Shown: piece by piece, positions 1 to 58,495 of the stretch
How positions within the stretch are numbered: position 1 is the first letter of the stretch
How the letters are laid out: every line of letters starts with the position of its first letter
NCBI GenBank assembly: GCA_002633005.1
Contig: NMRA01000097.1
Coordinates: 645,734-709,733, forward strand
From: Phoronis australis
Lineage: Eukaryota; Animalia; Phoronida
Direction: 5' to 3'
Length of the DNA stretch: 64,000 nucleotides
Translations under genes and position numbers: made by a program
The notes under the pieces: model-generated
Database searches by the model: none
Told to the model about the DNA's origin: nothing
The model's input: the letters and a program-made list of their open reading frames with translations, nothing else

Positions 1-2614
1 AGGCCTTTTAAATTTCATATAGTCTCAAAGTTCATCAAAATCCATGCCTAACATTGGGAGTAATTTCCAAACCAAAGCAAATGCTTCAAACAGGACTGGT
101 AATGTGTGAAAAAATTCTGTTTCTGAGAGCATTCCATTAGTGAGTTCTCAGCCCCAGTCTGTTAGTCTAAGCTCTTTTCACGTTTTACCCCATGGATAGG
201 TGGGCGCAGGTTGTCACCGATCTGTTCTAACATTTTGATGCAATGGTAGACTGAACACTGGTTCGAGTTCATCACTTTATTAATCTTGACTGTATGCTCA
301 TATTAAGTCCATTCAAACAAAATGTACAACGTAATGTGTGTTCTGTGCTCAGCCAGTGCTACAAAGCCTTGACTGTCAATACCTTCTACAATTGCTGGTG
401 CAATAACATGCTACTTTTGACAGTTCTTTGTTCTCTAGCCACAGCTGAAGTGTTAGACAAGTTCTGTGCAATTGAAACTGTACAACGGCTGGTGTTTTAG
501 CCAATGAATAATGTTATGAACTATGAAAGTACCTAGATGTTCTATTATTTTCTCATCTGGAATGGTAATTTGATGCTCCATGGACAGTAGAAATAAAATT
601 ATTTTCAATTAATGTTGCTGCAATTTATGATGTTTTTAGTGGGACAAATTTGCTGGAAGTGCAATTTATCATTCCATTTGTCCAAAGGTGTGTAGATTGA
701 TTCTGTCTTTTTATTTCTAAACACACTTATGTTGCTCAAGTGGAATGACCTCTTATTTCATGTATTATGTAACTTCGTATCCTTCCATGAGTCCATACAT
801 CATTGATGTTTCATTGTAATCAGATGTAACAGTGGAGGTCAGCTCAATAAAACAGAAGTTGATTGCAAACCACAGATTTGTGCAAATCCTTAAATTGCTA
901 AGTGCTTGCAGTTATAGTCATTGAAAATGTGTAACATACTTTGAAGAAAAGCAAAATTATTTAGATCATGATGATGCTCGATAAAACTTTTTGAATGCTG
1001 TTGGGACTGAATGTTCATAATGATGTATAATGCAAACTATAACTGGGTGAACAATTAGGTCAATATATTTACCACCAGTCGTTGGAACATGTGTTTCTGT
1101 GACTAATCATCACATCTTTCCATGAAATGACAATGTGAAGTATCAAGTGACTGGAGTTAACAGCTTTTGAGATATTTTAGGTTAAAAAAGATACCAAAAT
1201 TTAGCATTAGAAAGTTAATCTTCCCAATTTTAATGTTTTATTTAAAAATTCGCTGTGAAGCACCTTGTAATTGGTTAGAATTACTGTAAATAACAGTGTG
1301 ATTACTATGGCATAGATTTAATGTAATTACAATGTTGGTCAAGTCATTGCACTTGGTCAATGTAAACATGGCCATTTGAACCCTAAAATGCATTGACTAT
1401 TATGTACTTTGGGCCCACTGGGTGCATTTGGCCCCAGAATTCAAGAATACCTTGGGCCAGAAATTTTGGGAGATTTTTCGATCTGTAAACAAGAAAGTTC
1501 AATGAAGGTTTCCAGAGAAATTCAGATTGCATTTTTTTCCACCACTAACAGCTGAGGATTTAGCTAACTGCACTTGCACTACTCGGCCACTTACTAAACG
1601 GTGAATACGCCAGTGGCGGATCTAGGATACCACAAGGGGGGCCCAACATGACGCCTCAGAGAAATGGGCAGAGCTCGATTGTATGCACAGGTGGTTCAAA
1701 TATTGTTGGGGTTGGCGATACGGACCTGGTGTTCCGGAATTCTACCGTTGGGCTCGATATTTTCTCACGCTTCACGCTGTTGCTGTGTAATTTTTTGCTT
1801 GCACCAGTCAAGGGGGGGCCTTGGCCTGTACGCAATCTTCACGTAGCAACAATTAACAATCGCCCCGAGATACATTTTAATTATAACTCCTACGTACAAT
1901 CGCGATGCATTGAAGTGTTTTTAGCAAAATGTTATTGTTCATGTTTACCATAGATTATACACAACATAGTCTATGATGTTGACCGTTCGCCGAACGGTGA
2001 GCCAGACTATTTTCCTTCACTATACGATAAGACATGAATCGAACGTTTTCCGTTTGAAATGCACATAAATGAAATCCTAGGCAAAAACTATATTAGATCA
2101 TACTTGGGAGAGCATAGATACCAAATAAATCGATAACTTACTTCAGAAATAGGACTTCTTTGAGTCAATCGAGGTGTCGATGTCACGGTGCTTTCGAAAC
2201 CAGCCATCACTGTTTTGCTTTCGGCGACCTTTCACCTCTCTGAGGTCATCAGGTCTTTTCCAAATAAGGCACCGCAATGCATTTTGGGACTGTAATGTCG
2301 GACTTGACGAGCACGAAGGCGTGTCTTTTTGGTCAACTTTCAAACATAAAGAAAAATACTCCAAACTCATCTAAAACTCACTATATTTACGAAACCTACA
2401 AAAAAACTTCTACGCCACGATATGATATAGGTTTCATGCAAGATGAGTAACATTTACTTTCTTATTTTATACTATTTTTCACGTTCCAAGCCACTTTAAG
2501 CGTTAGTGATTACGTCTTAGTCTCCTTTCCTGGCTTTAAATGTATCTCTATTGTTTACTCGTTGTTTTGGACACATATTGTACATAACGCTCTCGCTCAA
2601 CTTGACATTCATAG

Positions 2615-5600
2615 ATGGTCCCTCCGAGTTAACTTTGGAAGCAAAGGATGGTGTCATACTCAATCAAACCAAGGATACAGTCGTTTTACTCAGCGACGAA
2701 CATTACGTCCTACATTGCAAAACGGACACGGTGTACACAACGGCCATGGTTACGTTAGAAGTTGCTGGAAATAGGACCACTCTGGCGGAGAAGTTTGCTT
2801 TGCCAAATTCCCGCTTCAAATTCAGCACAGGCAACATTGCATTTCATACGAATTGGCAAATCAATGGCACATTCGCTGTGTGTTTTGGTCAAAATGAAGA
2901 TGCACAGAAACTCAGTCAGATAAGGAAGCGGATGATTATTTTCGAGGGTGAGTCACGTGCCACGGTGGTGCTGCCATAGATCATTAATAGCTTAAAAATC
3001 CAGATCGGTGGTAACAGCAAGTAGGGACGGTGTAGGACTCTATTAAAGAAACGTACCAACATGTGGTTTTGGGGATCTCACTTCACGTGCTTACCCTAAC
3101 TCCGAAAATTGTGGGTGACCACCCGTTCCCGTAAATTTGACTATACAATGCATGTAAAACTATGAAGTGCAGGAAATGGTCACGAAAACATTCGACGGCA
3201 AGCAATGAAAACATCCTGACCTAATTGTCAAACGGCATGTCTAGAGAGAACCAGGTACACTGTACACTGTGCACGCACTCGCATAGCATAGATGTATGTG
3301 GAACGGATTTCCACGTAAAATCAAAGAAGATAGTGTCCAACGAAAGCAAAAAAAAATTAATTCAAGTCACCGTAAGCCTTTTCCTTACAGATCGCCGCCA
3401 CATCTTTGTAAGGCAAAACATATAGATCCATTTAGAGCTTCGCTACAAAAATGCGTAACAACTCCATGCGCGCACCCAGGGGGGGGGGGGNNNNNNGGGG
3501 GGGGGGGGTGTTCGTACAGCTCGAACGAGCCCTCCATTTTTAGGCTGGGTTTGCGCATGAACTCTGACCGTTTTCTTTTTTTTTCCAGTCGGCTGGACGC
3601 AGTGGGTTGACATGCCATGCAGCAAGACTTGCGGAGATGGAGTATATTACAGGCTGCGTAACTGCCGCCGGCCTAACATGGCCGACGTCTACTGCCCGGG
3701 TTCTCATATTTTGTTCCGAGCCTGTGTGAACTACCTGCCTTGCGAGGAAGTCACGTACATGAAAGGTGACAACTAAATTTAGTTTTAATAAGTGAAGAAT
3801 TCCTATGATATGAGAGATAAAGTTGCTAGTTATTGTAAGGGCAAAGCAAAATCAAAATCAACTGATATTTTTAAATCAGTTTTGACGATTTCAAGCAATC
3901 CTCATTATGCCTTCCTGCTAATGCAACATTGGCATCTCACTTGAGCGACATTTAACTAAAAACACTCACTGTGTCACAGAATAGGCACTACGGTTCTTTG
4001 TGTGTGGTCTTTCCCCAAAGTAACAGCGAAGTTCGCCTAACGCTTAGGTCGCGCTTATCCATTTAGCAAACTTTGAAAAGAGTTTTCACATTTTCCTCCA
4101 AACTTTTGAGGATTGACGTGTGTTACAGATTTTTATTTTGTTTTAGAGAGATGGATGGGAACGTTTTTACCAATATCTGTTCATAGGTCAATACCAGATT
4201 GAGAATCCTTTTAATAGTCACTGTATAACATCCTCTGGTGTCAAAAACCACTTTGTCCAATGACATATTTGATTTTCCAAAGACTTTTCTCATAAGTTGT
4301 AATTGTCTGGAATAAAACTTCTAGAATTCCCTTGACGAGTTTCTCGGTGGTTTGACGGCTGAAACTAAGGCGCTTTGACCACAGAACTCTATTGATTTAG
4401 CTAGAGTTTTGATCACATTTGTTTTAGGTCAAAACAGAAGCATGAACTTCAAAATTAGCGCGTACGGAAATAGAACTGTTCCCTTGAGAGTGGTTTAAAG
4501 TAATAATTATTAAACCGAAACGTCGGATCAACATGTCTTTATTTACGTTAATATTGAAGTTCAAACTAGAATTTTATCACCTATCACGCAAAGCTCATGT
4601 TAGGTAAGGAAAGGAATCAAAAACTCTAATTGCTGTGTTCCTAATGCTCGATTGCAGACGCAACATATCTTCAATATCACGAAATAAATCACCAAGAAGC
4701 AACGAATGTGCAGTATGCCGTCGTCATAGGCATTGTGATCAGTGGCCTATCGCTTTATATCTGGTATTCGCGCATCATATACAAACGGGACGTGGACGAT
4801 GTTCTGCAGACGTGTTACGACGACTTTGACGGCGTGGTCAACACCATGATTCGCACCCTTTCCCACAGTGATCTGTTCGAAGACCTCGGGCCAGAGGAGA
4901 AGTCTGATTATTGCCGGCAGCTAATCACAAGAAAGATCCATGAAATGCACGACGTCCAGTGTATTGAAATAGGCACAGAATTTGATTGGAACCTGTTTAT
5001 CCAGCAGTGCCAAGAGTTGTCCAACGAGATCGTCTTTGCGCAGAACGCCGAGACCAAGAGAGAGCGTCAACGTAAAAAAATGGTTGTCTGCCAGAAAATG
5101 ATCGCCCAGCGTGCAAAGCAGCAAGCGGTCTCTATGGTGCAGAATAAGCACACGCTCACGCGGAACTTGCTGCTGTTGGACGTCAAAGCTGGGGATAGAG
5201 AGCGTATCAAGATATCGTTGGAAGAATACAAAAGGTTTTGCGTCGAAAACAACAATTTGATTGAACCTGATAAAGAACTGATCCGCAACACTCAAAAAAT
5301 GTTGATAGCACTAAGTATTAAGCCGCGTCTGCAAAACGCTGTACAATCAGAAGACGCAGAGGCATTAAGAACGATCATTCAACTCAGTAAGGAAACGGAA
5401 ACGCAATATCTACTTGCCAAAGAACTCGAGGTGGCAGAAGAGCACTTGCAAGATCTGTTAGAAAGGCAAGAGCAACGTAGTGAGTTGTCAGTCGAGGTGA
5501 AATTATTGCGCGAAATAAAGAACTGTTTTAATCCACCACCAGTCCTTCACGATGTAATGGCCGCAACTTTAATGATACTAGGACAGTCGGAGCGAACAGT

Positions 5601-6174
5601 TCGCAACTGGCGCAAATGCAAGACTTTGTTCACAGCAGTAAGTGCAGATGAGACTTCCGGATTATTCCAGAGGATATCAGATTTCAAGCTTGATGATCTT
5701 AAGATCAAGACTGCCAAACGGGTGCGCGAAATCTTGTCAGGGTACGACGAGATCGATGTTCCGGAAAATGTGATGGCGTTCTTTCATTGGTCACAACAAA
5801 TGATCAAAGAGTGTCTAGTATCGGCAAGTACAGCTGAACCAAAACAGATAGAGACGAAACAACAGGCTACATTCTCGGTGCGTAAGGTAAGTGCAGATCC
5901 CAAACGAAGACGTGGTAGCAAATCGGCCTCATCTTATCCTTCTCCGTCTCTTTACTATAAAGACGACTTTTCTCAAAAGGTGAAAGATAAGGGTACTGAC
6001 AACCCCCCAGACCAGTTTTTGGCTGTCGGCAAGGAACCATCCGACGCGTGCTTGATATCACTTTCCAGAAGTTGGGAACCAAAGGACAAAAAATTTGTTT
6101 TCCCGGATCAAAACTGGAAAGGAATTAATAATAACTGGTCGTGCGGTCGACGTGTTCACCCCGAGAAGATGTAG
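2615..6174 (+). CDS. Single-pass membrane protein, 5'-incomplete model: Ig-like exon + TM + helical region + dynein-stalk/MTBD-like domain
   Basis: Exon A 2615-2947 (catag|ATGGTCCC...TTCGAGG|gtgagt, 333 nt, phase 1-1) reads GPSELTLEAKDGVIL...YVLHCKTD...GTFAVCFGQN, with two Cys spaced as in an Ig-like domain. It splices in frame to exon B 4658-6174 (attgcag|ACGCAACA), which contains the 488-aa ORF. TM segment AVVIGIVISGLSLYIWY; C-terminal EIKNCFNPPPVLHDVMAATLMILG...NWRKCKTL...FQRISDF...FFHWSQQM. No ATG or signal-peptide exon was identified. Confidence 0.7.
3466..3545 (+). mobile_element. MITE end (CATGCGCGCACCCAG family) with a G-run containing an assembly gap
   Basis: catgcgcgcacccagg followed by poly-G with N at 3491-3496; same terminus as the complete copy at 56963-57194. 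Confidence 0.55.
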
Positions 6175-9100
6175 CAACCAGCAAGATTTCTACTTCAGTT
6201 TTGTTGTTGCCTTGTTTCAGATGTTTATGACAATAACTACTTTGAAGCAGCACACAGTGTTACATGTATGCGTCTATAAGGCGCCGAAGGCCTACTGTTT
6301 CCTATAGTTAAGCGCTGGGTGGAAAATGTCGCCGTAAATTGCGCTCGCAAATTACGTTCGTTAAACGACGTGCTACTGTAAGTAGGACACGTCTGTGGAC
6401 TTTGCCAAATATCGCAAAACCTGAATTTTACGCAGTAAAACTACACATTTTCTGAATTTACTCGAAATCCTGCAGAATTTGAGTTTTGACATTACACGAT
6501 ACGACAACTACATTGGTCTTCCGGTCATGACTGTTTTAGTAAAATATAACAAAAGTGCATTCTATTGTAGTTTCACAGCCACATCTAAAACATGGCCAAA
6601 TTTGTTTCCATACCAATCTCAATTTTTTTTTGCAGTTTTCTAGGTTATCACAACGATTCTTTCAAAAAAAACGTAAAAGTCCAGTTTTTGACAACTAACA
6701 TAAATCATGCATTCCGGCATTTGTGGGTTCTCCTCATGGGCGTAGGGTGGAGTGACTGCAGTTAGGGATGCCGTTGTTGGCTTCGTCTGTTTGACTGTGA
6801 CTTCATATCAGCTATGTCGTCAATGTTTGTCGCTTCGGTACTGTTGTGGAAGGCATCTACATGTACGCAGCCATCGGTGTTGACGGCGGTGTCTTCGTCT
6901 TCTTCGCTGCTGTTCGTGTTGTTCAAATAGTGTAAGAGTCGGCGGCGGTATCGTGGTCGCCAAGGGCGTCCTCTGCATCGACAATGGTGTCGCTTGGAAT
7001 GTCGTGTATTGCAACAATTTTCATCACTGGCATTTTTATCCTGTAACCTACAAGGCTAGTGAAAACGCTATCGTTTTAGTCAGTTTTCAGTCGGGCATTA
7101 GTCTTACACGGTGATGTATTCTTCCAAAGCCTTTTGTCAGTTGTGAGTACAGTGTATGTGCAGCTACATCTTGTGGTCAAGTTGGATAACTCTTACGGTA
7201 CATTACACAACGCTGAAAGGGGACTGAGGTACTCGCAAACGGGGTCATTTTCGACCAGCTATTAGTTTTTCTAATTACCCGAACCGTTTTTGTGCAAAAC
7301 ACTTTTTAACTTTATAAAAATAACTACCATACATTTATTAATGCGATCTCTTCTCATATGTGTCTGGAAGTACGTGCTGGCTATAACATCGTCATCGAAA
7401 ATATCTACAGTGTACGGCAGTGCTGTAGTGGGGCGTAGGAGCACGTAGGCGCAGCCAACCACCTTTTGGCATTTAAACGTAGCGCCTACAGTGAGGCGTA
7501 AGCGCAGCCAACCATCTTTTTACATCTTAAAGTAGCGCCTACGCACAGTAAGTGACGGTATAGAAACCGCATACATGTAGAATGGACGCGGACCGTTGCC
7601 TTCCTATGTGTGGCTGGGCCCCTCTCCGAAAGAGTCTGCGACATCCTAGATTCGCCACGGCAGACTCGAAATAAATACCCACTCGAGAGTCAAAAAAGAG
7701 TTTTTACATGTTTGAGTTGTGCTTTGCAAATTCAATGCATTTTTTAAATTCCGTGCTCAAAGTGATACGGTGGGCATTGGGCGCCTACTTACCTTTAATT
7801 TTACCACTACAGCACTGGTTTACGGGGAAACTCAAATCGCCAGCAAAACACCAGGAACAGTAATACTTGTCACCGTTTATTTTTGCTACTCACTACCCAA
7901 AGTTCTGGCAAAAATGCGAGCGTTTTAGCACGTTGGTGAATAAAATATTATCTTAATAGTCAAAACTTGCCGTGCGTCATAGTTGTCGAGTCAGTTTTGA
8001 TTTCACGGATGACCTGCACTTTACATTGAGGAATGGAACTCGAAACTCGTAAAAGAACTTACGTAGCTGATGGTGGCGAATCCATTTCTTGGGGATGTTA
8101 ACGTATCACGTAATATTCACTTTGAAAATTGCAAGTATTTGTAGAAAAACCCAGTAGTTTCAGTATTTTTGGAACACAAACAGCAAAGACAAAACTCAAT
8201 CCAATACAGTTTCCAGGCGCGTACCCAGAGGGAATGTGACCGAGATTCGGGTGTACTCCTCCAAATTTGTTTATACTATAAACACTTTTCGCTAAAAATG
8301 AAGATTATCAAACGGTTCTAGGGAAGGTTCGCCAGATAATAGCAAACCGGGCAAACCTATAGCTACATGTACGGTTTAGTATCGACAGCAGGTTTATTGT
8401 CATCTCAAATTACGAAGAGCGTGCGTGCGATGTGAGGGGCTCACGCGTGTTTTATGAACCATGGGCACGCGCGTCGTATGAACCCAGTAGCTACCCAGCA
8501 GTCAGATGAACAGTAGTAGCTAAAGACGGGTCAACTTGTACATTGAGAACGTGAATACAAAAGAACAGCAAAAAGTGTAAATCTGTCGATCCGTTTTTAT
8601 GACGGCGAACGTCGAGTCCCAAGTGCTGAAGCTGTTTCAAGCAATCCTGAGCCAGCAGTGCCATTTCCAATGCAGTTGTCACCAACAAGCAGGAAATGGA
8701 CGATACAGAATTGGTAGAGATTTCACCAGATAAAACAAACTATCTCTCGCACGTCCGAAACAGTTACAGGTAGCAGATCCTCAAAATAGTGCATTGATGA
8801 TTGAGGTGTCTTCATTAAAGCGGAAAACAAAATAGACGTGGTGATAGCAAAAGTGAAATCGCTCAGTAATTAAGACTGTTGCTATCTAACTACGAACCAC
8901 ATCCATCCTGATGACAACTTTGTATTTGGCAGTAGTTTTAGGGGCGGTTGTAACGTATTTTTTAGCGAAAATATCATTCAAGCTCTTTAAATCGCAGCAG
9001 CTTTAGCATCGCAGGTTGTGCGTGCGAGCGAAGCGCCATTGCGTTGGGAAGACTTCATAAATGCGAGTGGCGACGTACTAGGCTGTTCGCTATGGTGGGC

Positions 9101-44600: not shown

Positions 44601-47600
44601 AGCGCTGTTCTGTTTTCAGTTTCTGCTCCTAATATGGTGTGCAGCAAATTAACTCGGATGCTGGAAAATAAATGCCGTTTGGAAATATGAGTCTATAGTT
44701 TTCTCATTTATTTTGGAAACATAGGAAAATATGTTTATTATCAAGCTTCAAAAAAGCTCCGCGAATTTTAGGTTCACTAAGCAAATTTAACAAAAAATTA
44801 AGGACTTAAAGCAAGTAATTTGAAACATCGCCTGCGATTGGGTGTTTAGCCACAATCAAAATTTTTTTTTTTTTAAGATCTACATTGTTTGTGTCAAACA
44901 TTTGTCTTAGGAAGATGCTGAGATTAACTTATTTTTAGACATCTGGAATTTTCTTTTCCTTTTTGCTTTAATTTCGTATCTGAAATATTTTCAAAGATAT
45001 ATGGATTTGTTGTAAAAGTTGATAGTAATGAATACTCTAGCATTATAATTTTAAAAGAAAGTTGACATATTTCATAGAAATTCTCCTTTAACAAATCATC
45101 GTTTAACATTGAAGAAAATCAGAAGAACACGAATTCTGACCAATAACTAGATAATTAGCAGAGAAATTGTACTTAACAATATACTCAACACTGGCGATTG
45201 GTTTTAAAAAGGTTGTGCAGTGTATAATTATGTACTTTTAATGAGAGAACTTCACTGACTGTTTCAGTACCACTTGTTATTGCCTGGTCTCTATTATGTT
45301 GTGGAAGAAATCAAGACTCACAAGGTGAGTGATCCTCACATCAGTTTGCATTAATAACTAGTACTGCTGTGTCTTGACAACACCGCTGACGGTAAAAAGT
45401 CTCTAGCGTGGGAAAAATTAATTATTCTGTATAATTATGTTGTTTTGTTTTGTGTCTCGAAAATCATGATTTTTTTTATTTTTCTATCATGAGCTTGGGA
45501 GAATTATTAATATATAATGTGATGCCTGATGTAAGATGTGACTGTCGCCAAAAGAAAAGCCTATCAGTTAAGGCTGGCTGGTATGTGTAAATGGAACTTA
45601 GTTTTTAAACGAACATGTCTTATAGAAAATTTGGTGCTCAAATATCTTTAACATCCACCTTGTTTTGACATGGCAGCTGGTGATTTGCTGATTACTTTCT
45701 TCTAGTTTGATCATTCCTGAAAGCTAGCAGCATTAATTTTACAAAATTAAATTGGCAGTGTATTTCTGGCTATTCACTTCCCGCAATGTTTTGTTTACAG
45801 CATCATGGCTGTCAACTGCTTGAAGTTCTTCACAAGCACACATCATGTGGGATACTTGTGGTCAAGAAAGCAATACACAAGTAAGTGGACAGTGACCTTA
45901 TTTACATTTGGCCAAGGTCGAGTGATTCTTGTTCATCATGCTAATTCTGCCCCATCACTGGGTAGAATTTGCTGTACACATAATCAACTTCTTACGGTAA
46001 TTTTTATCTCAGTAGGAAACACAATGAGTTAGCCGGTCTCATTAAGGTAGACCATCCTACAATGACACGGTAATGTTCCTAAAAATTATTTCAAACTTTT
46101 CAATTTATTTTTGTTTAGCTTCCTCTTAATTTTAAGTCTGGCTGTCAGAAATCTTGAGAATCCTTTCCACTGAAAGTACAGTAGAATTGGCAAAGTGTGT
46201 CTTGCATGATCGAAGGCATTACAAAAATTGTGAAGCAATTCACTGATGCAGAAATATAGTGTTAGAAACCTTTCATCAACAGGCATCCATGCCGAAAGAA
46301 TTTTGTTTGTTAGAGAAAATAACTGTCATTCGCTTCAGGAATTTGCAGGAACTGATTAGTATTGTGTCAAAAAATTATGTTTATACAGTACTGCTTTTCA
46401 TGAGACTGCCTGTACAATTCATAGTGGAAGAGTCTCTGCCCTGAATATGGTGATATTGTTTGATTATAATTGATTTGATGTCATTTCTTTGTTAGAATTC
46501 TTCACAACTGTCATCAGCTGATGTACAAGCAATTGTCTGCCTGGCTTTTGTATGGTCTTTTGACTGACCAATTCGGCGAGTTCTTTATTTACCGGGTCAA
46601 AGGTCGTCTCCACAGCAGCGACCTGTCAGTTGAGGAAGATGATCTTGGTCTTGGTGGAGTCACAGGCAGGCAACTCAGACAACTCATGGTAGGGTGGATT
46701 TTGCTCTTTGTCAAAAAGTATTGTCTATGTTGCCTTGGGGCTTGTTGTATCAAAGGTGTTACAGGCAGTGGTAGTTAAGATATTGTGAGTGTGAATGGGT
46801 TATTGTTGTCATGTGTACAGTAAATGACCATCTTCATAACCTCTTAAACCCCTGCCTGTCCAGCATACTCTGAAAATAAAACATCTAGATGTGATGAATC
46901 TGGCACCAGTTTTCTCATTCTTATGGCTTAAGTTATACACATTTCATGCTTACTAGTTTTTGTTTGTTTAGATACAGTTTCTTTTTGTACATTTCAGCAA
47001 ATTTCCGGAGTGCCCACAGAGGTCAGCACCAAGGACTTTGAGCAGTTTGCTATACGGCCTGGTATGTTGCCGTCATATATCCCGACCCGCATGGCTAACC
47101 GCATACTATTTGTTGGTGAATCCGTACAAATGTTCGAATCTGATGATACCTATGGCAAGCAGCGAACAAGTAAGCAAAGAAAAGCAGAATTATGTTCTAA
47201 TCCAACTTCTGCATCAAATGCTTGTTGTTATATGTATGATCATTGTCTGTGGTAACATGAACAAATATCCTATCGTGTTGAATTGCAAAAATGGAACAGA
47301 AGTTATCTTATTGCATTTCTCATCGGAAATCTCTGAAAGCACAATACTATGTAGAATTAGGCGAGACGTGCGACTGAAATTTGTCAAAATTGTACTTTTT
47401 TGAAGGTTTCTCAAATTTTGTTGACAGTCTAGGCATGGATATGGGATAGTTTCTGTAATGTTGCTGTAACACAAGAGATCACTAGTGTTTTGTGAGTAAG
47501 CAGGCAATATATTGAATGGTCTTATTGTAGTACAATGTCTGAGCAATGAGTGAGCAGCTAGTAGGTGTGTTGCTTAATCTTGGTAAACACTCACTAATAC

Positions 47601-50600
47601 TCACGGATCATAATCCAAGTCAAAGTTCACATAGTTAAAAAGTCTCTGCAGTATTTTCCCTCTCTCCCAATGAAACTCAATTATGCGGGTCAGGGTGCCA
47701 CAAAACCTGTTAGCTATTAATGGATTCTTGGTTTAGTTGGCAAGGGTTTTGAGAAATATTATGAATTTACAGGCTCAGTTTTGAAGAACCAGAAGGACGA
47801 TTTTGCTAAGCAGTTATACCAGCTGTCACTGCAAGAAGAGTTCTCTTTGATCGATTTTGAGAAAGTCATTGATGAAATACGTACCAGTGTTGCTGAGGTA
47901 GGAATATGTACTAAGTAGTGAAAGCCGCATGCAACTTTTAGTCACAGTTCAGTGAACATGGCGTCTATGACTAACGAAACTAGCCACGGACACAAACATT
48001 GTACTCCAACCATTCAGGTCATTGCGCAATCATGCAATGTAATGCAAATTTGCTGTTTTATTACAAGCATCAAAACTGATTCTTACAAATTTTATTATTT
48101 CAAATCTGAAACTGTTTTGATGTCCCAGCATTATTGTTAAATGCCTAAAAGTCTTGAACTGCATTTTGGGAAAACTTAACGCCTTGCTTTCATAGGCTTA
48201 TTTTGGAAATATTTTCTGAATGTAGAGCGCAATTTAAAATGTTACGGTTTGTATTGTTTCCTAGAGTTAAAACGTTTTAACGGAACGTGAAAGCTAAGCC
48301 AGACTGCATGGCTGAGTAAGAGGACTGAATTCAGTTTATTTTGTAGACAAGTAAAAACATGCTTAAACAAACTACCGTGATCTCTAGCTCTTATGTACAC
48401 GCACATTGTCCTTCATTCCTTTTGGATATCACTGACACATGTTCCACTTTTTGGTTCAAGTTTTTGGTAGGGAGTAGCAGGAGAGTTATTCCATTTAACG
48501 AGTGTACACCTAAGGCATACCACCTGAAATTCCAATTATCACAGTCTAATTGTAAATTTTCTGTACCAGCACCTGTGGACCCTAGTGGTGGAAGAGTCCA
48601 ACTTGGAAGGTCAGATGAGAATCATCAAAGACTTCTTTCTGCTGGGTCGAGGAGAGCTTATTCTGGCCTTCATCGACCAAGCCTCGCCAATGCTGTCAGT
48701 GCCACCCAGTGGTACCACACAACATGGTATTGTCTTTCTCTTTGTCTATAGAATGCAATGGGATGTTTGTCGTATGCTGGGTGCAATATTAGAGTTCAAG
48801 TACATTACTTTTCAAAAAAGTTAGAAATCAGTTAGTTCTTTTTGTCTGGTCTCCTTTTGGGTTTTTGCTATTGTTTTGACTATGGCAGGAGAATTTCAAC
48901 GAAATTTGGCAACTTTTTCAGAATGACTGTGGGCATTCTCAGTCATTCACTTTTGGAATAGTTTTAAAGCTGCATGTGCCAGACCTTGGCATAACTTGTA
49001 GTCTTATCTAAAATACAAATTAATATTTAAAACTGAATTTTGAGTTGTTTGTATCGGCTTGGAATTGGTGCATTTGAGTTCAAAGAAAAGACAACCATTT
49101 TGTTTGATTTTTAGAATTTACTTCGTTGTTCTTTGTACATTTTGTTGGTAGCCGTCTGTCTCAAGAGACAATGGATATGTGCCATCTGTCAGTCATTGGT
49201 TAAATTGCAGCATTGCTTGTGGCCAAAAAGTCCAATTCTGGCACATTTAGTTGTGATTATATACATTTGTTTGTATGTCCAGATATCAACATGGCGTTCC
49301 AGCAGGCAGGCAGGAGTGTATTGTTGGAGGATGAGTTGGTTCACAAGTTTACCCTCACAGTCGATGTCAAGCCAGGAAACAAGGATAAAAGTAAGACACG
49401 GTGAAATATTGAACATACTGTTGTAGGATTTCGCCCAATTCTGATTCTATCACTTGCTATTTTGATATAAAAAGCATTTGACATACAAATCTTTAGCGTT
49501 GCGAGAGTATGATAAATTTTAAGCCAGGTCATTGAGTTGTTGGTACAGATTCTGTTTGAAGTTTCAAACCTGATCAAATCTCTGATTTGTCTTTCAGAAA
49601 GCACCAGCCAAGAAGACACTTCGGCCAGTGAACCTGGATGGAATAGTCTGGGAATGAATTATACAGTGGAGTGGCCACTGCATGTACTGTTCACTCAGAG
49701 TGCTCTTGAAAAGTAAGTCAAGTGACTGTCATGACACATTGGCTAATGAATTGCCTGATCACTGCTCCACCTAGTGGCCTTTAATTTTTGAGATGGCTGC
49801 TGGGATGAGCCAAATCTGTCAAGGTAACAACTCATTCAGTGTCAGGGTTCCAAAAAAATTTAGTTTCCATTTCTCTTAACATATATAGATAAATCTTTCC
49901 TTTTAACATTAGCTCCCATTCTCCACTATTATGACGCATTTTGTGTCTGTGGCATACAGTAAAATTATAAAGTTAGTGTTCCTTAATTTTGTCACTGTAA
50001 AAAAGCTTGCTGTTATACATTTTATACAATTCAAATTAGCATATTAATTTTTGATAGCCTAAGTTTTTGTCCTAAATGAATCAGACATGTTGCCAACACT
50101 TAAAACGCTAGCATATATTTTACTTAAAACTCGCATATTGGAGATAATACTGTCAGATAACAGTTATCACCATAGAATAAATAAAGTACAAATTACTTCA
50201 AAGTTTACTGATGTGACGGGCTCTCTTTGTTCTTGACTGGAGACCAGATATGACTGTAACTGATAGCTCTGCCTACTCTCTTCACTATATTGTCACAGGT
50301 TGACATACTTTGAGCACAGAATACTATGTGTAGAACTTTTATCTTAGTATTCTAAATATACCTAAAACATTGGGAGATATTTGAGCAGAGTTTGCATCGT
50401 GGGATTAGTCTACCATCTTGGGTAGACTAAGTGTTTAGGCATAAACGTGAAGAAGTAGATTTCATGTATTAGGCCAGAATTGGGCAGTTCTAACACTGCT
50501 AACAGCTAACCCGCGCAGAGGTTATGGAATATTTCACTATTGACCAACTATGGTATACTTCACTATTGACCAACTATGGTATACTTCACTATTGACCAAC

Positions 50601-53600
50601 TATGGTATACTTCACTATTGACCAACTATTGCTGGCATGTACACATAACTCTTTTCCTACTTGCATTACCCTACCCCTCACTCACATACATGTACTGGTA
50701 ATGTGTCACTGTGCCCCTAAATACCTTGTGTAGCACTTAACCAAACCCTGGCGCTTTGAGATGCTGTGCTCATGTTGCATTGAAATTCAGCCCCTGGTAG
50801 TAGTCTAAAAACGTCGCTTAAAGTTGCATTTCATCCTAATGAGCTGGCTAAAAATGTATTAAATCTTTTACTCGGCTGATAAAATTACTCTCATAATTAT
50901 TTTTTACTTGGATAGAATTCTAGTTTTATTACCACCAAGGTAATCGAAACCAACAGTGACTTGAGAAAATACTTCAGAGATTATTGCAGTTGGCTTATCC
51001 TAAAATTGCATAAATATTTGGTAATGGCGCATGTATGCATTGTGTGTGTCCAGAGTTGGTAAATAATGCAATCCTTCATTGGTAAAGACTACTACGAGAC
51101 TGATTTTATCATGACAGTAAAAAGCTTATCCAAATAAACAGGGTAGAGGTACAGCTTTAATCAAGCCCTGGCACTTAATCGAGCCAAGACAATGTTTCAG
51201 TTGACTTAGTCTTTGAGATATATGATCTCTGAACTTGCATCCATTTAAGATACAACACAGTGTTCAAGTTCTTAGTGTCAGTCAGAAGGGTTCAACTTCA
51301 CCTGCAACACATCTGGGCATTGCAAATGGAACGCAAAAAGTTACTATCAGCCGACGTTCACTCTGCGGACAAGTGGCACCTGCGGACACATATGGCTTTT
51401 CTGGTAGATAACTTACAGTATTACCTACAGGTGAGTCCATTCAGTGGTCAAATGGCTGTGTTTGACACATTTCGCTGTACCACTGAACAGTGTCCAGTAT
51501 CAGCTTTGTTAAATGTTTTCAGTTTCATTACACCAGGCCTTAAAAAAGTGCAGGTTTCGGAATGCTGTGCTTGCCTTAGTTAAAAATCTTTCGGCCTGAT
51601 CATGAGCAGTGGCATGCGATTTTCCAAAAGAGATCTGCAAACAATTTCTATGATTTGTGAACATGTAAAATTATTAATAAATCCAGTATTTTGTGGTTTC
51701 TGTTTTTAAGTAAACCTCTCTATTGGATTTATATTATTTTTCAGTATTGTTTAACATTAGAATTTCAATTTAACTTAATTTTGTTTATTTAGTTCAATGA
51801 ACACACTGTCCTTTCAAAGGTTACTTGCTCGATATGGCATGTGTTTCAGATTGCAAAATATCACTCCCTTTCCCACTTAATCTGTAATAAATGAAAAACA
51901 AACCCTTCCATTTGTAATCTCACCCCAAGCTCCTATAACTACACTATAACTTCCCTTTTGGCCACCAGGTGGATGTGATCGAGTCTCAGTTCAGCACCTT
52001 CACATCATCCATACATGCCACGCATGACTTCGAAGCTGTGAGGTTCGCGCACGACCAGTTTCTAACGTCGTTGTTATCACAATCATTTCTGCTCATGAAA
52101 CCCGTGAGTTTGTTGTATTACTTTACACTTTAATATGCCAGTCACTCTTTATTGTTTCTTGTAATGTCTTTTGGGTCTCTGCCATGGTCCCTATGTTCTC
52201 TGGCTGTAGAATGTGCAAAAATGATGCTTCCATCGGTTTTGTAGTGATGCATTCTTTGTTAACATAGTCGCATCTTGTAGGATATTTTGCTTTGCTACAA
52301 TGACAGTTTTGACCTGATCCTACTTGGTGGACTGTGCAGTCCTTATGTTACAATCAAGTCATATTTTGTTTCTTTGAGAATCTTAATTTTATGATTTTTG
52401 CCATTTTTGGTTTTCATAATATTTGAAGAAATTAAAATTAGTAAATGGCGAACCTTTTACTTTGTTTGGGATTTCACCAAATTTGACGAAAATAAAACGT
52501 TGTTATGAGAGTAGCTGATTTGGAATCCCTTTGTGCCTAAACAGCTTATTCATCTCATGCCACAATGCAATAGAGTACAAAACTATTTTTCAAATGATTT
52601 TATTAATTATGGTAGCTACTAATTTGCAATTTTCTCAAAGCTTGGACAAAATTAGAAAACTTATTGATTGAATGTTTTTGTACGTTCTTGACAACTATTG
52701 TCGAACTGTCACCAGGTGTACCACTGTCTGATGGAGATCCTGTCTACGTGCCAGTCATTCTGCCACCTAGTGTCACATTCCTCAGAGCCAATGTTGGATG
52801 ACGAGGTCGGTCAGATGGAGACCATCACTAAGGTATTGTAAGAATGTCTTGTTTGCAAAAAAAATATTAAAAAATTACTTAACGTTGACATGGTCCGATT
52901 TATTTTCAAGTAGTGTTTTCCAATGTTGACCATTAGGCAAACTTGCTTGACACTTTAGTTCTGTCAATGCGCTGTCACCACTAGACTATGAGGCAGGTTA
53001 GACCACTGCAGCACTCTCTAGTGGCCTCTTGAGTCTCAACAGGAGACTTTTTGTACTCTTGGAGAGATCGTTTCAGTATGACATCTAGAGAGCCAATTGA
53101 AAATACTCAATAATTTTACTGAACCGGAACACAGACGTATTTGATGGCAATGTGCAGCCCCTAATCAATGTTTGGCCAGATTTCACCACTGCGGACTCTC
53201 CCAATTGCCATTTTGGGTCTTAACAAGGGGGTTTTCTGTATTTTGAGGGAGAAAAGCATCTCCAAATGATATCTGGACAGCTGATCGACAGTTTTCAATG
53301 AAACAGTTTTTGACGGCACTGTGCTGACACAAATCAAGTATTGGTTGGATTCAAATAAGGCGGCACCCCCTATTGGCCAAGTTGTGTGGTTGATTCTAAT
53401 GAAATTTACCACAGTAAAGTGGGGCATCATTGCAATGCTTCCCACTTTACAATTTGCAACTTTTTCTGATGGTAAGGGACAGTGGAAGCAGGCAGGGCTT
53501 ATCAGCATTTTTGAGGAACCAATTTGGAACAGATTTTATGCGAGCTACATAGCCATTAGTATTATTTTTTAGTATATTTTTTGTCATGTGTTTCTGAATC

Positions 53601-58244: not shown

Positions 58245-58495
58245 AGTCCAACGGGAATTCTGAGCACATTTATCACTCCATAAGTAACATCTGCGAGACT
58301 AAAAACTGGTGAAAACTGTGAATAGCGCAGAATAGTAGGTAAAGATTTTTCTCACTTAGTGTCATCGTAAATTATTTGTGAAAATAATTTATACACAGTT
58401 GTAAACTCGTTACTATGAGACTAAGTCTAACGGGAATTGTGAGCATTTTTATCACTCAGTAAGTAACATCTGCTTGGATGAAATCCAATGAAAAC
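58245..58495 (+). repeat. Two diverged direct copies (about 50-70 bp, about 180-bp spacing)
   Basis: agtccaacgggaattctgagcacatttatcactccataagtaacatctgc versus agtctaacgggaattgtgagcatttttatcactcagtaagtaacatctgc. Confidence 0.7.

Follow-up and report, generated by a model that had tools for sequence, protein, structure and literature searches.

A predicted Ig-like/TSP1 membrane receptor of Phoronis australis has, in its cytoplasmic tail, a motor-free homologue of the domain by which dynein binds microtubules

It is by way of adaptors or motors that adhesion receptors are generally known to connect with microtubules, and the microtubule-binding domain (MTBD) of dynein has been treated as a part of the motor. 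The dynein domain contacts microtubules via three helices, H1, H3 and H6 (PMC6629372; PMC7042235), and the isolated yeast MTBD, assayed by co-sedimentation, has an affinity between those of the low and high states (PMC7042235). Here we describe a gene on the forward strand of a 64,000-nucleotide stretch of Phoronis australis DNA (the window; eukaryotic, about 40% G+C) whose product is predicted to be a type I membrane protein with Ig-like and thrombospondin type 1 (TSP1) domains outside the cell and about 470 residues in its cytoplasmic tail. On the evidence of profiles and a modelled fold, the part of this tail encoded at 5476-5817 is genuinely homologous to the dynein MTBD; because the sequence profile and the fold both point to the dynein family, we consider the homology established.

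The copy in the window resembles the dynein MTBD (PF12777 core; structures 5AYH, 3ERR, 6KJO, 6RZA and 6RZB) in fold, in the order of its motifs (E-I-K/R..PP..V..VM.A..L-G..W..F..W) and in the glutamate and basic residue of H1. It differs in standing behind a predicted membrane helix, in having a decayed H6, in sharing only about 14-20% identity and in falling below the PF12777 threshold. An earlier note on this DNA, made from the letters alone, had proposed a motor-free MTBD here, and the motifs it quoted are present (LLREIKN at 5503, NWRKC at 5605 and FFHWS at 5779). The match to PF12777 by which it would have been checked did not appear: a direct Pfam scan of the tail returned none at E ≤ 10, and in a direct phmmer search of the PDB three of the four matches were to dynein (the yeast dynein MTBD), but at E 0.54-0.61. 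The connection is made through relatives. A HMMER scan with 5260-5850 against 1.84 billion representative sequences (E ≤ 1e-3) found 132 relatives at 20-40% identity (best E 6e-22). We aligned the query with 109 of these (alignment A1), omitting 19 mostly long proteins and four initially suspected to be dynein pieces, and the resulting profile reached E ≤ 0.01 for 57 PDB sequences, of which 56 belong to dynein heavy chains or to constructs of the MTBD (best E for chains of the MTBD only, 3.5e-13). Among proteins of 1981-5000 amino acids it found 30, and Pfam identifies 30 of 30 as dyneins. In the reverse direction the tail scores 90 bits against a family profile built without it, and 22.9 bits over H1-H5 against a profile of those 30 dyneins, which were chosen with A1 and so are not fully independent. 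PF12777 itself is matched by 24 of the 132 relatives at E ≤ 0.01 (six above its cut-off), nearly all over the MTBD part of that profile. An Atlas query with the module gave unnamed mollusc-rich clusters (0.91 and 0.90) and a PF12777 (33%) cluster (0.78); recognition was below threshold, and we use this as a lead only. Word-seeded searches with the last exon returned nothing among proteins of 277-884 or 885-2525 amino acids, no orthologue is known, and a scan of metagenome contigs gave 40 pattern matches, none of them confirmed. As an aside on the PDB matches, one of the 56 (9FQR_Hl, 4583 residues) is labelled "Radial spoke head protein 9 homolog" and aligns like DNAH10; the label is probably an error.

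A model predicted from the single sequence reached a predicted local distance difference test score (pLDDT) of 56.7, with residues 65-181, the MTBD part, below 50; given A1, AlphaFold reached 92.5. Compared with 48,161 representative chains, this second model has dynein MTBDs as its five best fits (Z 14.0-10.6) and unrelated folds at 7.6 or less, with the caveat that chance alone can give a helical bundle Z values of this size. The best fit is the mouse MTBD 5AYH (Z 14.0, 1.6 Å over 110 residues), and 3ERR also gives Z 14.0. The structure search suggested in the earlier note succeeded in part: the AlphaFold model fits dynein MTBDs, but Foldseek by itself gave no match at E ≤ 0.001 and ranked dynein first at E 0.02. 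With the 56 of 57 profile matches, the likeness lies far above chance. The predicted tail is laid out as follows.

4765..5150, forward strand: charged, cysteine-bearing juxtamembrane region, matching no known family
5152..5289, forward strand: possible, weak first copy of a helical repeat (joint profile 30 bits)
5290..5475, forward strand: three-helix repeat in place of the dynein stalk (model helices 2-20, 23-35 and from 43; pLDDT 93-98)
5476..5817, forward strand: dynein MTBD-like domain, H1-H6 plus a returning helix (profiles, fold)
5743..5772, forward strand: decayed H6 segment (charge, substitutions, model)
5881..5913, forward strand: basic patch in a likely disordered C-terminal tail (sequence)

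Neither AAA+ modules, whose absence had already been remarked, nor any other Pfam family were found in the 509-amino-acid open reading frame (ORF) of the last exon. The returning helix spans about 22 residues in the model and does not make the long antiparallel CC1/CC2 stalk of dynein. What stands in the place of the stalk is a three-helix repeat that is common to the motor-less relatives and absent from dynein: a family profile of this upstream region gives the window 30 bits, while none of 30 dynein stalks scores above 5.9. The repeat scores 17.4 bits. The possible extra copy at 5152-5289 scores 4.6 bits alone, a value exceeded by at least 5 of 500 shuffles and not significant. For the juxtamembrane region at 4765-5150 there was no Pfam family, homologue or Atlas match (Atlas query, residues 1-400). 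The C-terminal tail has 117 amino acids, 22 of them Lys or Arg and 14 Asp or Glu, and its basic patch could bind the acidic tails of tubulin. Identity as a dynein heavy chain is ruled out, as the protein has no AAA+ ring, linker or coiled-coil stalk, its frame ends at 6174, and the upstream exons encode TSP1 and Ig-like sequence.

The gene itself is real, spliced and expressed in a sample-specific manner. Raw RNA reads carrying the same species label were mapped to positions 1-7000, from three runs (X1, X2 and X3, about 18-19% of each) and one contig set, and they support the following structure.

2615..2947, forward strand: coding exon, phase 1-1, likely Ig-like ectodomain (splice ends; RNA cover confined to 2613-2948, with loose ends on both sides)
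2948..3588, forward strand: intron, GT..AG (7 spliced reads, X1 and X2)
3589..3765, forward strand: TSP1 exon, phase 1-1, six cysteines (Pfam TSP_1; spliced on both sides)
3766..4657, forward strand: intron, GT..AG (9 spliced reads, X1 and X2)
4658..6174, forward strand: last coding exon, with the membrane helix and the entire cytoplasmic tail, to the stop codon (ORF, RNA depth)
4708..4764, forward strand: predicted single transmembrane helix, followed by basic residues (Kyte-Doolittle)

The first exon had been described correctly as a phase 1-1 exon (333 nucleotides, AG/GT ends), but it had been thought to splice straight to 4658. The reads run instead from 2947 to 3589 and from 3765 to 4658, through a TSP1 exon that had been missed. 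The first intron is spanned by three reads in X1 and four in X2, the second by four and five, and all 11 listed loose read ends that pass 2947 enter the TSP1 exon (seven in X1, four in X2). No direct 2947/4658 joint is listed in the sampled 18-19% of each run, where rare skipping is possible; the two exons are nonetheless connected, by way of 3589-3765. The last exon is covered to a depth of 4-22 on the expected strand in X1 and X2 and not at all in X3, though X3 covers 1-940 deeply. Joined, the three exons form a single open frame of 675 codons plus stop. Upstream of 2615, eight reads in X2 carry an additional exon whose final 30 letters have no match within the 64,000-nucleotide window at ≤ 10 mismatches, and the gene has at least one further 5' exon outside the window. 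Read by hand, this exon appears to end in frame, with a strand-like MLIIRVR before Tyr-Gly-Pro, as at the close of a preceding Ig-like domain.

Three X2 reads have a different sequence before the Ig-like exon, at 2612, with an in-frame stop by hand reading; this sequence resembles the window at 58306 and probably comes from a repeat or from the intron of another allele. Variant sites at 2653, 2720 and 2853 in reads over the Ig-like exon were hand-read as Val/Ile and Lys/Arg, both conservative, and one silent change. Multi-copy repeats at 1610-1815, 4070-4115 and 4442-4547 collect many loose-ended reads, and the second intron contains an inverted repeat.

The 177-nucleotide TSP1 exon encodes six cysteines in a WxxW, CxxxC, RxRxC pattern and matches Pfam TSP_1 at E 2.5e-9 and 37.6 bits, above the cut-off of 21.6. 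Exon 2615-2947 is likely an Ig-like ectodomain, as first proposed, on the grounds of a pair of cysteines 55 residues apart and a strand pattern; it also has three N-glycosylation sequons. No Ig profile in Pfam, the PDB or NCBIfam passed for it, and its best Ig-type match was to an unrelated Ig-like Pfam family, sub-threshold at E 0.02. Its weak matches to unrelated families were rejected as chance. The membrane helix reported in the last exon is there, a single hydrophobic helix at 4708-4764 with a 19-residue Kyte-Doolittle mean of 1.83 (next best 1.12; hydropathy only). The product is therefore predicted from its sequence to be a type I membrane protein of one or more Ig-like domains, a TSP1 domain, a transmembrane helix and the cytoplasmic tail, with its 5' end and signal peptide outside the window, and the architecture is (Ig-like)n-TSP1-TM-helical region-MTBD-like-basic tail, where TM is the transmembrane helix.

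By sequence comparison, the tail module is one of a family of motor-less C-terminal modules that is widespread in animals and of which we found no description. In this family the module consists of the three-helix repeat and the MTBD-like bundle, and in 87 of 111 relatives no more than 40 residues separate its end from the C-terminus. The suggestion that similar tails occur on hillarin/transglutaminase-like proteins, and that the module may be mobile, is borne out: 37 of the 132 relatives carry Pfam Ig-like_KY, most of them with a transglutaminase-like core and some with a CARD. Other hosts are CLCA/VWA, CD20-like, EF-hand and unannotated proteins, and the hosts that could be named (30 of 132 were looked up) come from a sponge, a rotifer, molluscs, annelids, a brachiopod, amphioxus and tunicates. 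A start resembling a myristoylation signal is present in 27 of 132 relatives, against 13 of 1589 internal Met positions, and in 21 of the 37 KY-type proteins; a hydrophobic helix precedes the module in 11 of 112 relatives, one of these probably spurious. A CARD stands before the module in P0104, P0108, P0109 and P0119, three of which are KY-like, P0119 being from amphioxus, and several proteins hold more than one copy (three in P0001, two each in P0058 and P0124).

A quick tree of 143 domains over 127 columns, from which 20 short matches were dropped, has a side that holds the 30 dyneins together with one protist protein, with a Shimodaira-Hasegawa-like approximate likelihood ratio test (SH-aLRT) value of 88, and the window lies outside it. 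A protist protein, P0124 of Gefionella, groups with dynein-2, unlike the animal family. The copy in the window has a long branch and is placed with annelid and mollusc copies that are linked to KY, apart from the other copies linked to membrane helices (support 84-86, no starred branch), and four of the five rows in its own, weakly supported fork (SH-aLRT 84) are KY/hillarin-like. These relationships suggest capture of the module from the motor-less family and a lophotrochozoan host; the donor was probably a KY/hillarin-type protein and not dynein directly. They also suggest several independent fusions to membrane helices (four changes), though the tree does not force more than one. Our literature search, which left most subscription papers outside, found nothing on a motor-less dynein MTBD in animals, on such a receptor or on hillarin together with dynein. 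The wording "MTBD-like" in a paper on TTLL11 concerns TTLL6/7 and not dynein (PMC12366701), and was set aside.

How new is this protein? The KY/hillarin-like proteins of molluscs, annelids, brachiopods and amphioxus (Transglut_core plus Ig-like_KY) have the same C-terminal module of helical repeat and MTBD-like bundle. The window protein differs from them in lacking Transglut_core and Ig-like_KY in the three exons that the window holds; it is, moreover, predicted to be integral to the membrane and to present a TSP1 domain outside the cell. There are also hosts, single- or multi-pass, in which a membrane helix is likewise followed by a cytoplasmic motor-less MTBD-like module. By their automatic names these are CLCA-like (P0067, P0077), mucin-like (P0034) and CD20-like (P0018) proteins of amphioxus, a tunicate VWA-TM protein (P0052), P0110, a rotifer protein (P0112) and Cys-rich membrane proteins (P0049/P0135). 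Unlike the window protein, they have other ectodomains, keep the Ser of H6 and take different, weakly supported positions in the tree. None of the 132 relatives has a TSP1 or canonical Ig family. The claim of a new architecture thus stands for the ectodomain and fails for the membrane-tethered module, which other animals already have, and the order Ig-TM-MTBD is corrected by the TSP1 domain. The novelty lies in the ectodomain and not in membrane tethering per se: this is a new architecture made from a known fold.

What such a tail does has to be argued from its parts, and every step beyond homology is inference. We think it quite possible, while stopping short of probable, that the MTBD homologue of the receptor acts as a weak, static and clustering-dependent tether for microtubules. 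In this scenario an Ig-like/TSP1 single-pass receptor would carry the motor-less homologue at the inner face of the membrane. With no AAA+ ring or stalk there would be no ATP-driven release, so that any binding to microtubules would be passive. With the H1 contacts (Glu, Lys) kept, H3 unusually basic, the tail basic and the H6 contacts lost, a single molecule would bind poorly, a weak hold being expected because one of the three gripping helices, H6, has decayed. Ligand or adhesion would then cluster the receptors, and avidity would provide a useful grip by which cortical microtubules are anchored at the contact site. The recurrence of membrane tethering across the family was counted in favour of a tether.

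The residues at the positions of dynein's microtubule contacts speak to this. Yeast contact numbering (PMC7042235) was placed by the alignment of A1 to the PDB and counted in 111 relatives and the 30 dyneins, about half of which are DNAH2 and about a third dynein-2. At the position of E3122, the partner of alpha-tubulin R402, the window has Glu, as do 109 of 111 relatives and all 30 dyneins. It has Lys at R3124 (Lys or Arg in 91 of 111 relatives) and Arg at R3152, and three of the six yeast salt-bridge positions are thereby kept; the two H3 positions were placed by sequence offset, and the 30 dyneins likewise conserve them poorly. The net charge of H3 is +3, and in 110 of 111 relatives it is equal or lower. 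The hydrophobic core and both Trp are also kept, with the 61-residue span between the Trp that is typical of the family (94 of 111 relatives).

Against a tether stands, above all, H6, which in the window is the most altered among 141 scorable sequences. Its net charge is -4, and every one of the 110 relatives (mean -0.5) and of the 30 dyneins (mean +0.7) has a higher value. The position of R3201 is Asp (Lys or Arg in 28 of 30 dyneins and 15 of 110 relatives), that of K3204 is Glu, and the conserved Ser of H6 (101 of 110 relatives, 30 of 30 dyneins) is Pro. The match to the dynein-only profile ends before H6, and the model gives this segment fewer than four helical residues. Elsewhere, K3117 is Val and R3159 is Thr, and the summed charge of the interface is 0, where the family averages +0.9 and the dyneins +2.4. 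The conserved Glu of H1 could be structural. The model is also closer to low-affinity than to high-affinity or bound structures (Z 11.8 for 6KJO and 10.7 for 6KJN; 1.8 Å for 3ERR and 4.2 Å for 6RZB), a weak point. Finally, the fold occurs in a radial-spoke protein, chain C of 7JTK (residues 467-589, Z 11.4), and an MTBD-like fold therefore need not imply binding to the microtubule lattice. On these sequences and models, the link of the module to microtubules is a hypothesis, and for the window copy it is in real doubt.

The radial-spoke chain leads to the alternative that survives best, which we rate as possible though not expected: the MTBD fold would have been re-used as a docking surface, for cortical adaptors, for septin or actin linkers or for itself, and would no longer bind microtubules. 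The retention of the core and both Trp while the surface charges of H6 are reversed fits such a scaffold. So does the fold of 7JTK_C, probably RSP2; the long C-terminal part of RSP2 reaches the surface of the spoke head (PMC10774353). The best-studied relatives of the commonest hosts, which may or may not carry the module, may point in the same direction: hillarin, which has been linked to septins and the axon hillock, and Ltd-1 act with septins or actin-like patterns (PMC3718969; PMC3081291). A scaffold does not account for the Glu and basic residue of H1, kept here and family-wide, or for an H3 more basic than in nearly all relatives. Moreover, a Toxoplasma chain of weaker likeness, 9YA2_L (residues 1217-1457, Z 8.5), sits on the microtubule surface (PMC12819142). 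From its size and numbering this chain is probably ICMAP2, which binds between protofilaments, and the main text of that paper confines "dynein" to its reference list. A third chain that is apparently not a dynein, 9FQR_Xl, matches at residues 1351-1492 (Z 9.9), and the accessible part of PMC11779644 contains no mention of it. All three are axonemal or conoid proteins and not receptors, at 8-16% identity, and their Z values may reflect a common bundle arrangement only; their likeness to the MTBD may have gone unremarked in print.

We consider it quite improbable that the module is a passenger, brought in by a retro-copied or shuffled single exon together with the membrane helix and tail, and slowly decaying under relaxed selection. 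The entire tail is indeed a single intron-free exon, its end branch is long (1.03, compared with a median of 0.38), H6 has decayed, and the searches found no relative of more than about 35-40% identity; but 505 codons form an open frame, both the Trp-to-Trp span and the core residues are retained, and the fold is predicted with high confidence. Chance likeness, a disrupted dynein gene or the erroneous joining of unrelated exons, suggested by the empty PF12777 scan and the poor phmmer E values, is largely refuted and extremely improbable in view of the transitive profile and fold matches, the spliced reads that connect the exons, upstream helices that fit the motor-less family and not dynein stalks, the position of the window outside the all-dynein side of the tree (SH-aLRT 88), and a six-frame scan of the window that found no second MTBD-like stretch.

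If the tether holds, a receptor with an MTBD-derived domain of its own would be a direct link from membrane to microtubule. A broader proposal, which we regard as less likely than not, is that there is an undescribed animal family, from sponges to amphioxus, of motor-less grips derived from dynein and repeatedly fused to membrane anchors, and that the gene in the window encodes an Ig/TSP1 adhesion receptor that would directly hold cortical microtubules, switched by ligand clustering, with neither adaptor nor motor. The family amounts to many natural stalk-less variants of the MTBD and could show which of H1, H3 and H6 are required for binding; the window copy, as a natural loss of H6, is informative whichever way binding turns out. 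The family is also a clue to the C-terminal domain that many KY/hillarin-like proteins carry without annotation.

Three further features of the window lie outside the receptor exons. Positions 1-960 are deeply transcribed on the forward strand in all three runs (depth about 90-310), most of all in X3, which lacks the receptor exons. This segment has no long ORF and an AATAAA at 846, and it looks like a 3' untranslated region; since the upstream exon of the receptor is outside the window, it would be a same-strand gene nested in an intron of the receptor, a short alternative end of the receptor gene, or a fault in the assembly. Farther along, also on the forward strand, an exon at 34692-34973 matches FAM221 (E 1.1e-4), and exons at 46932-51580 encode a component of the gamma-tubulin complex (Pfam GCP_N_terminal and GCP_C_terminal).

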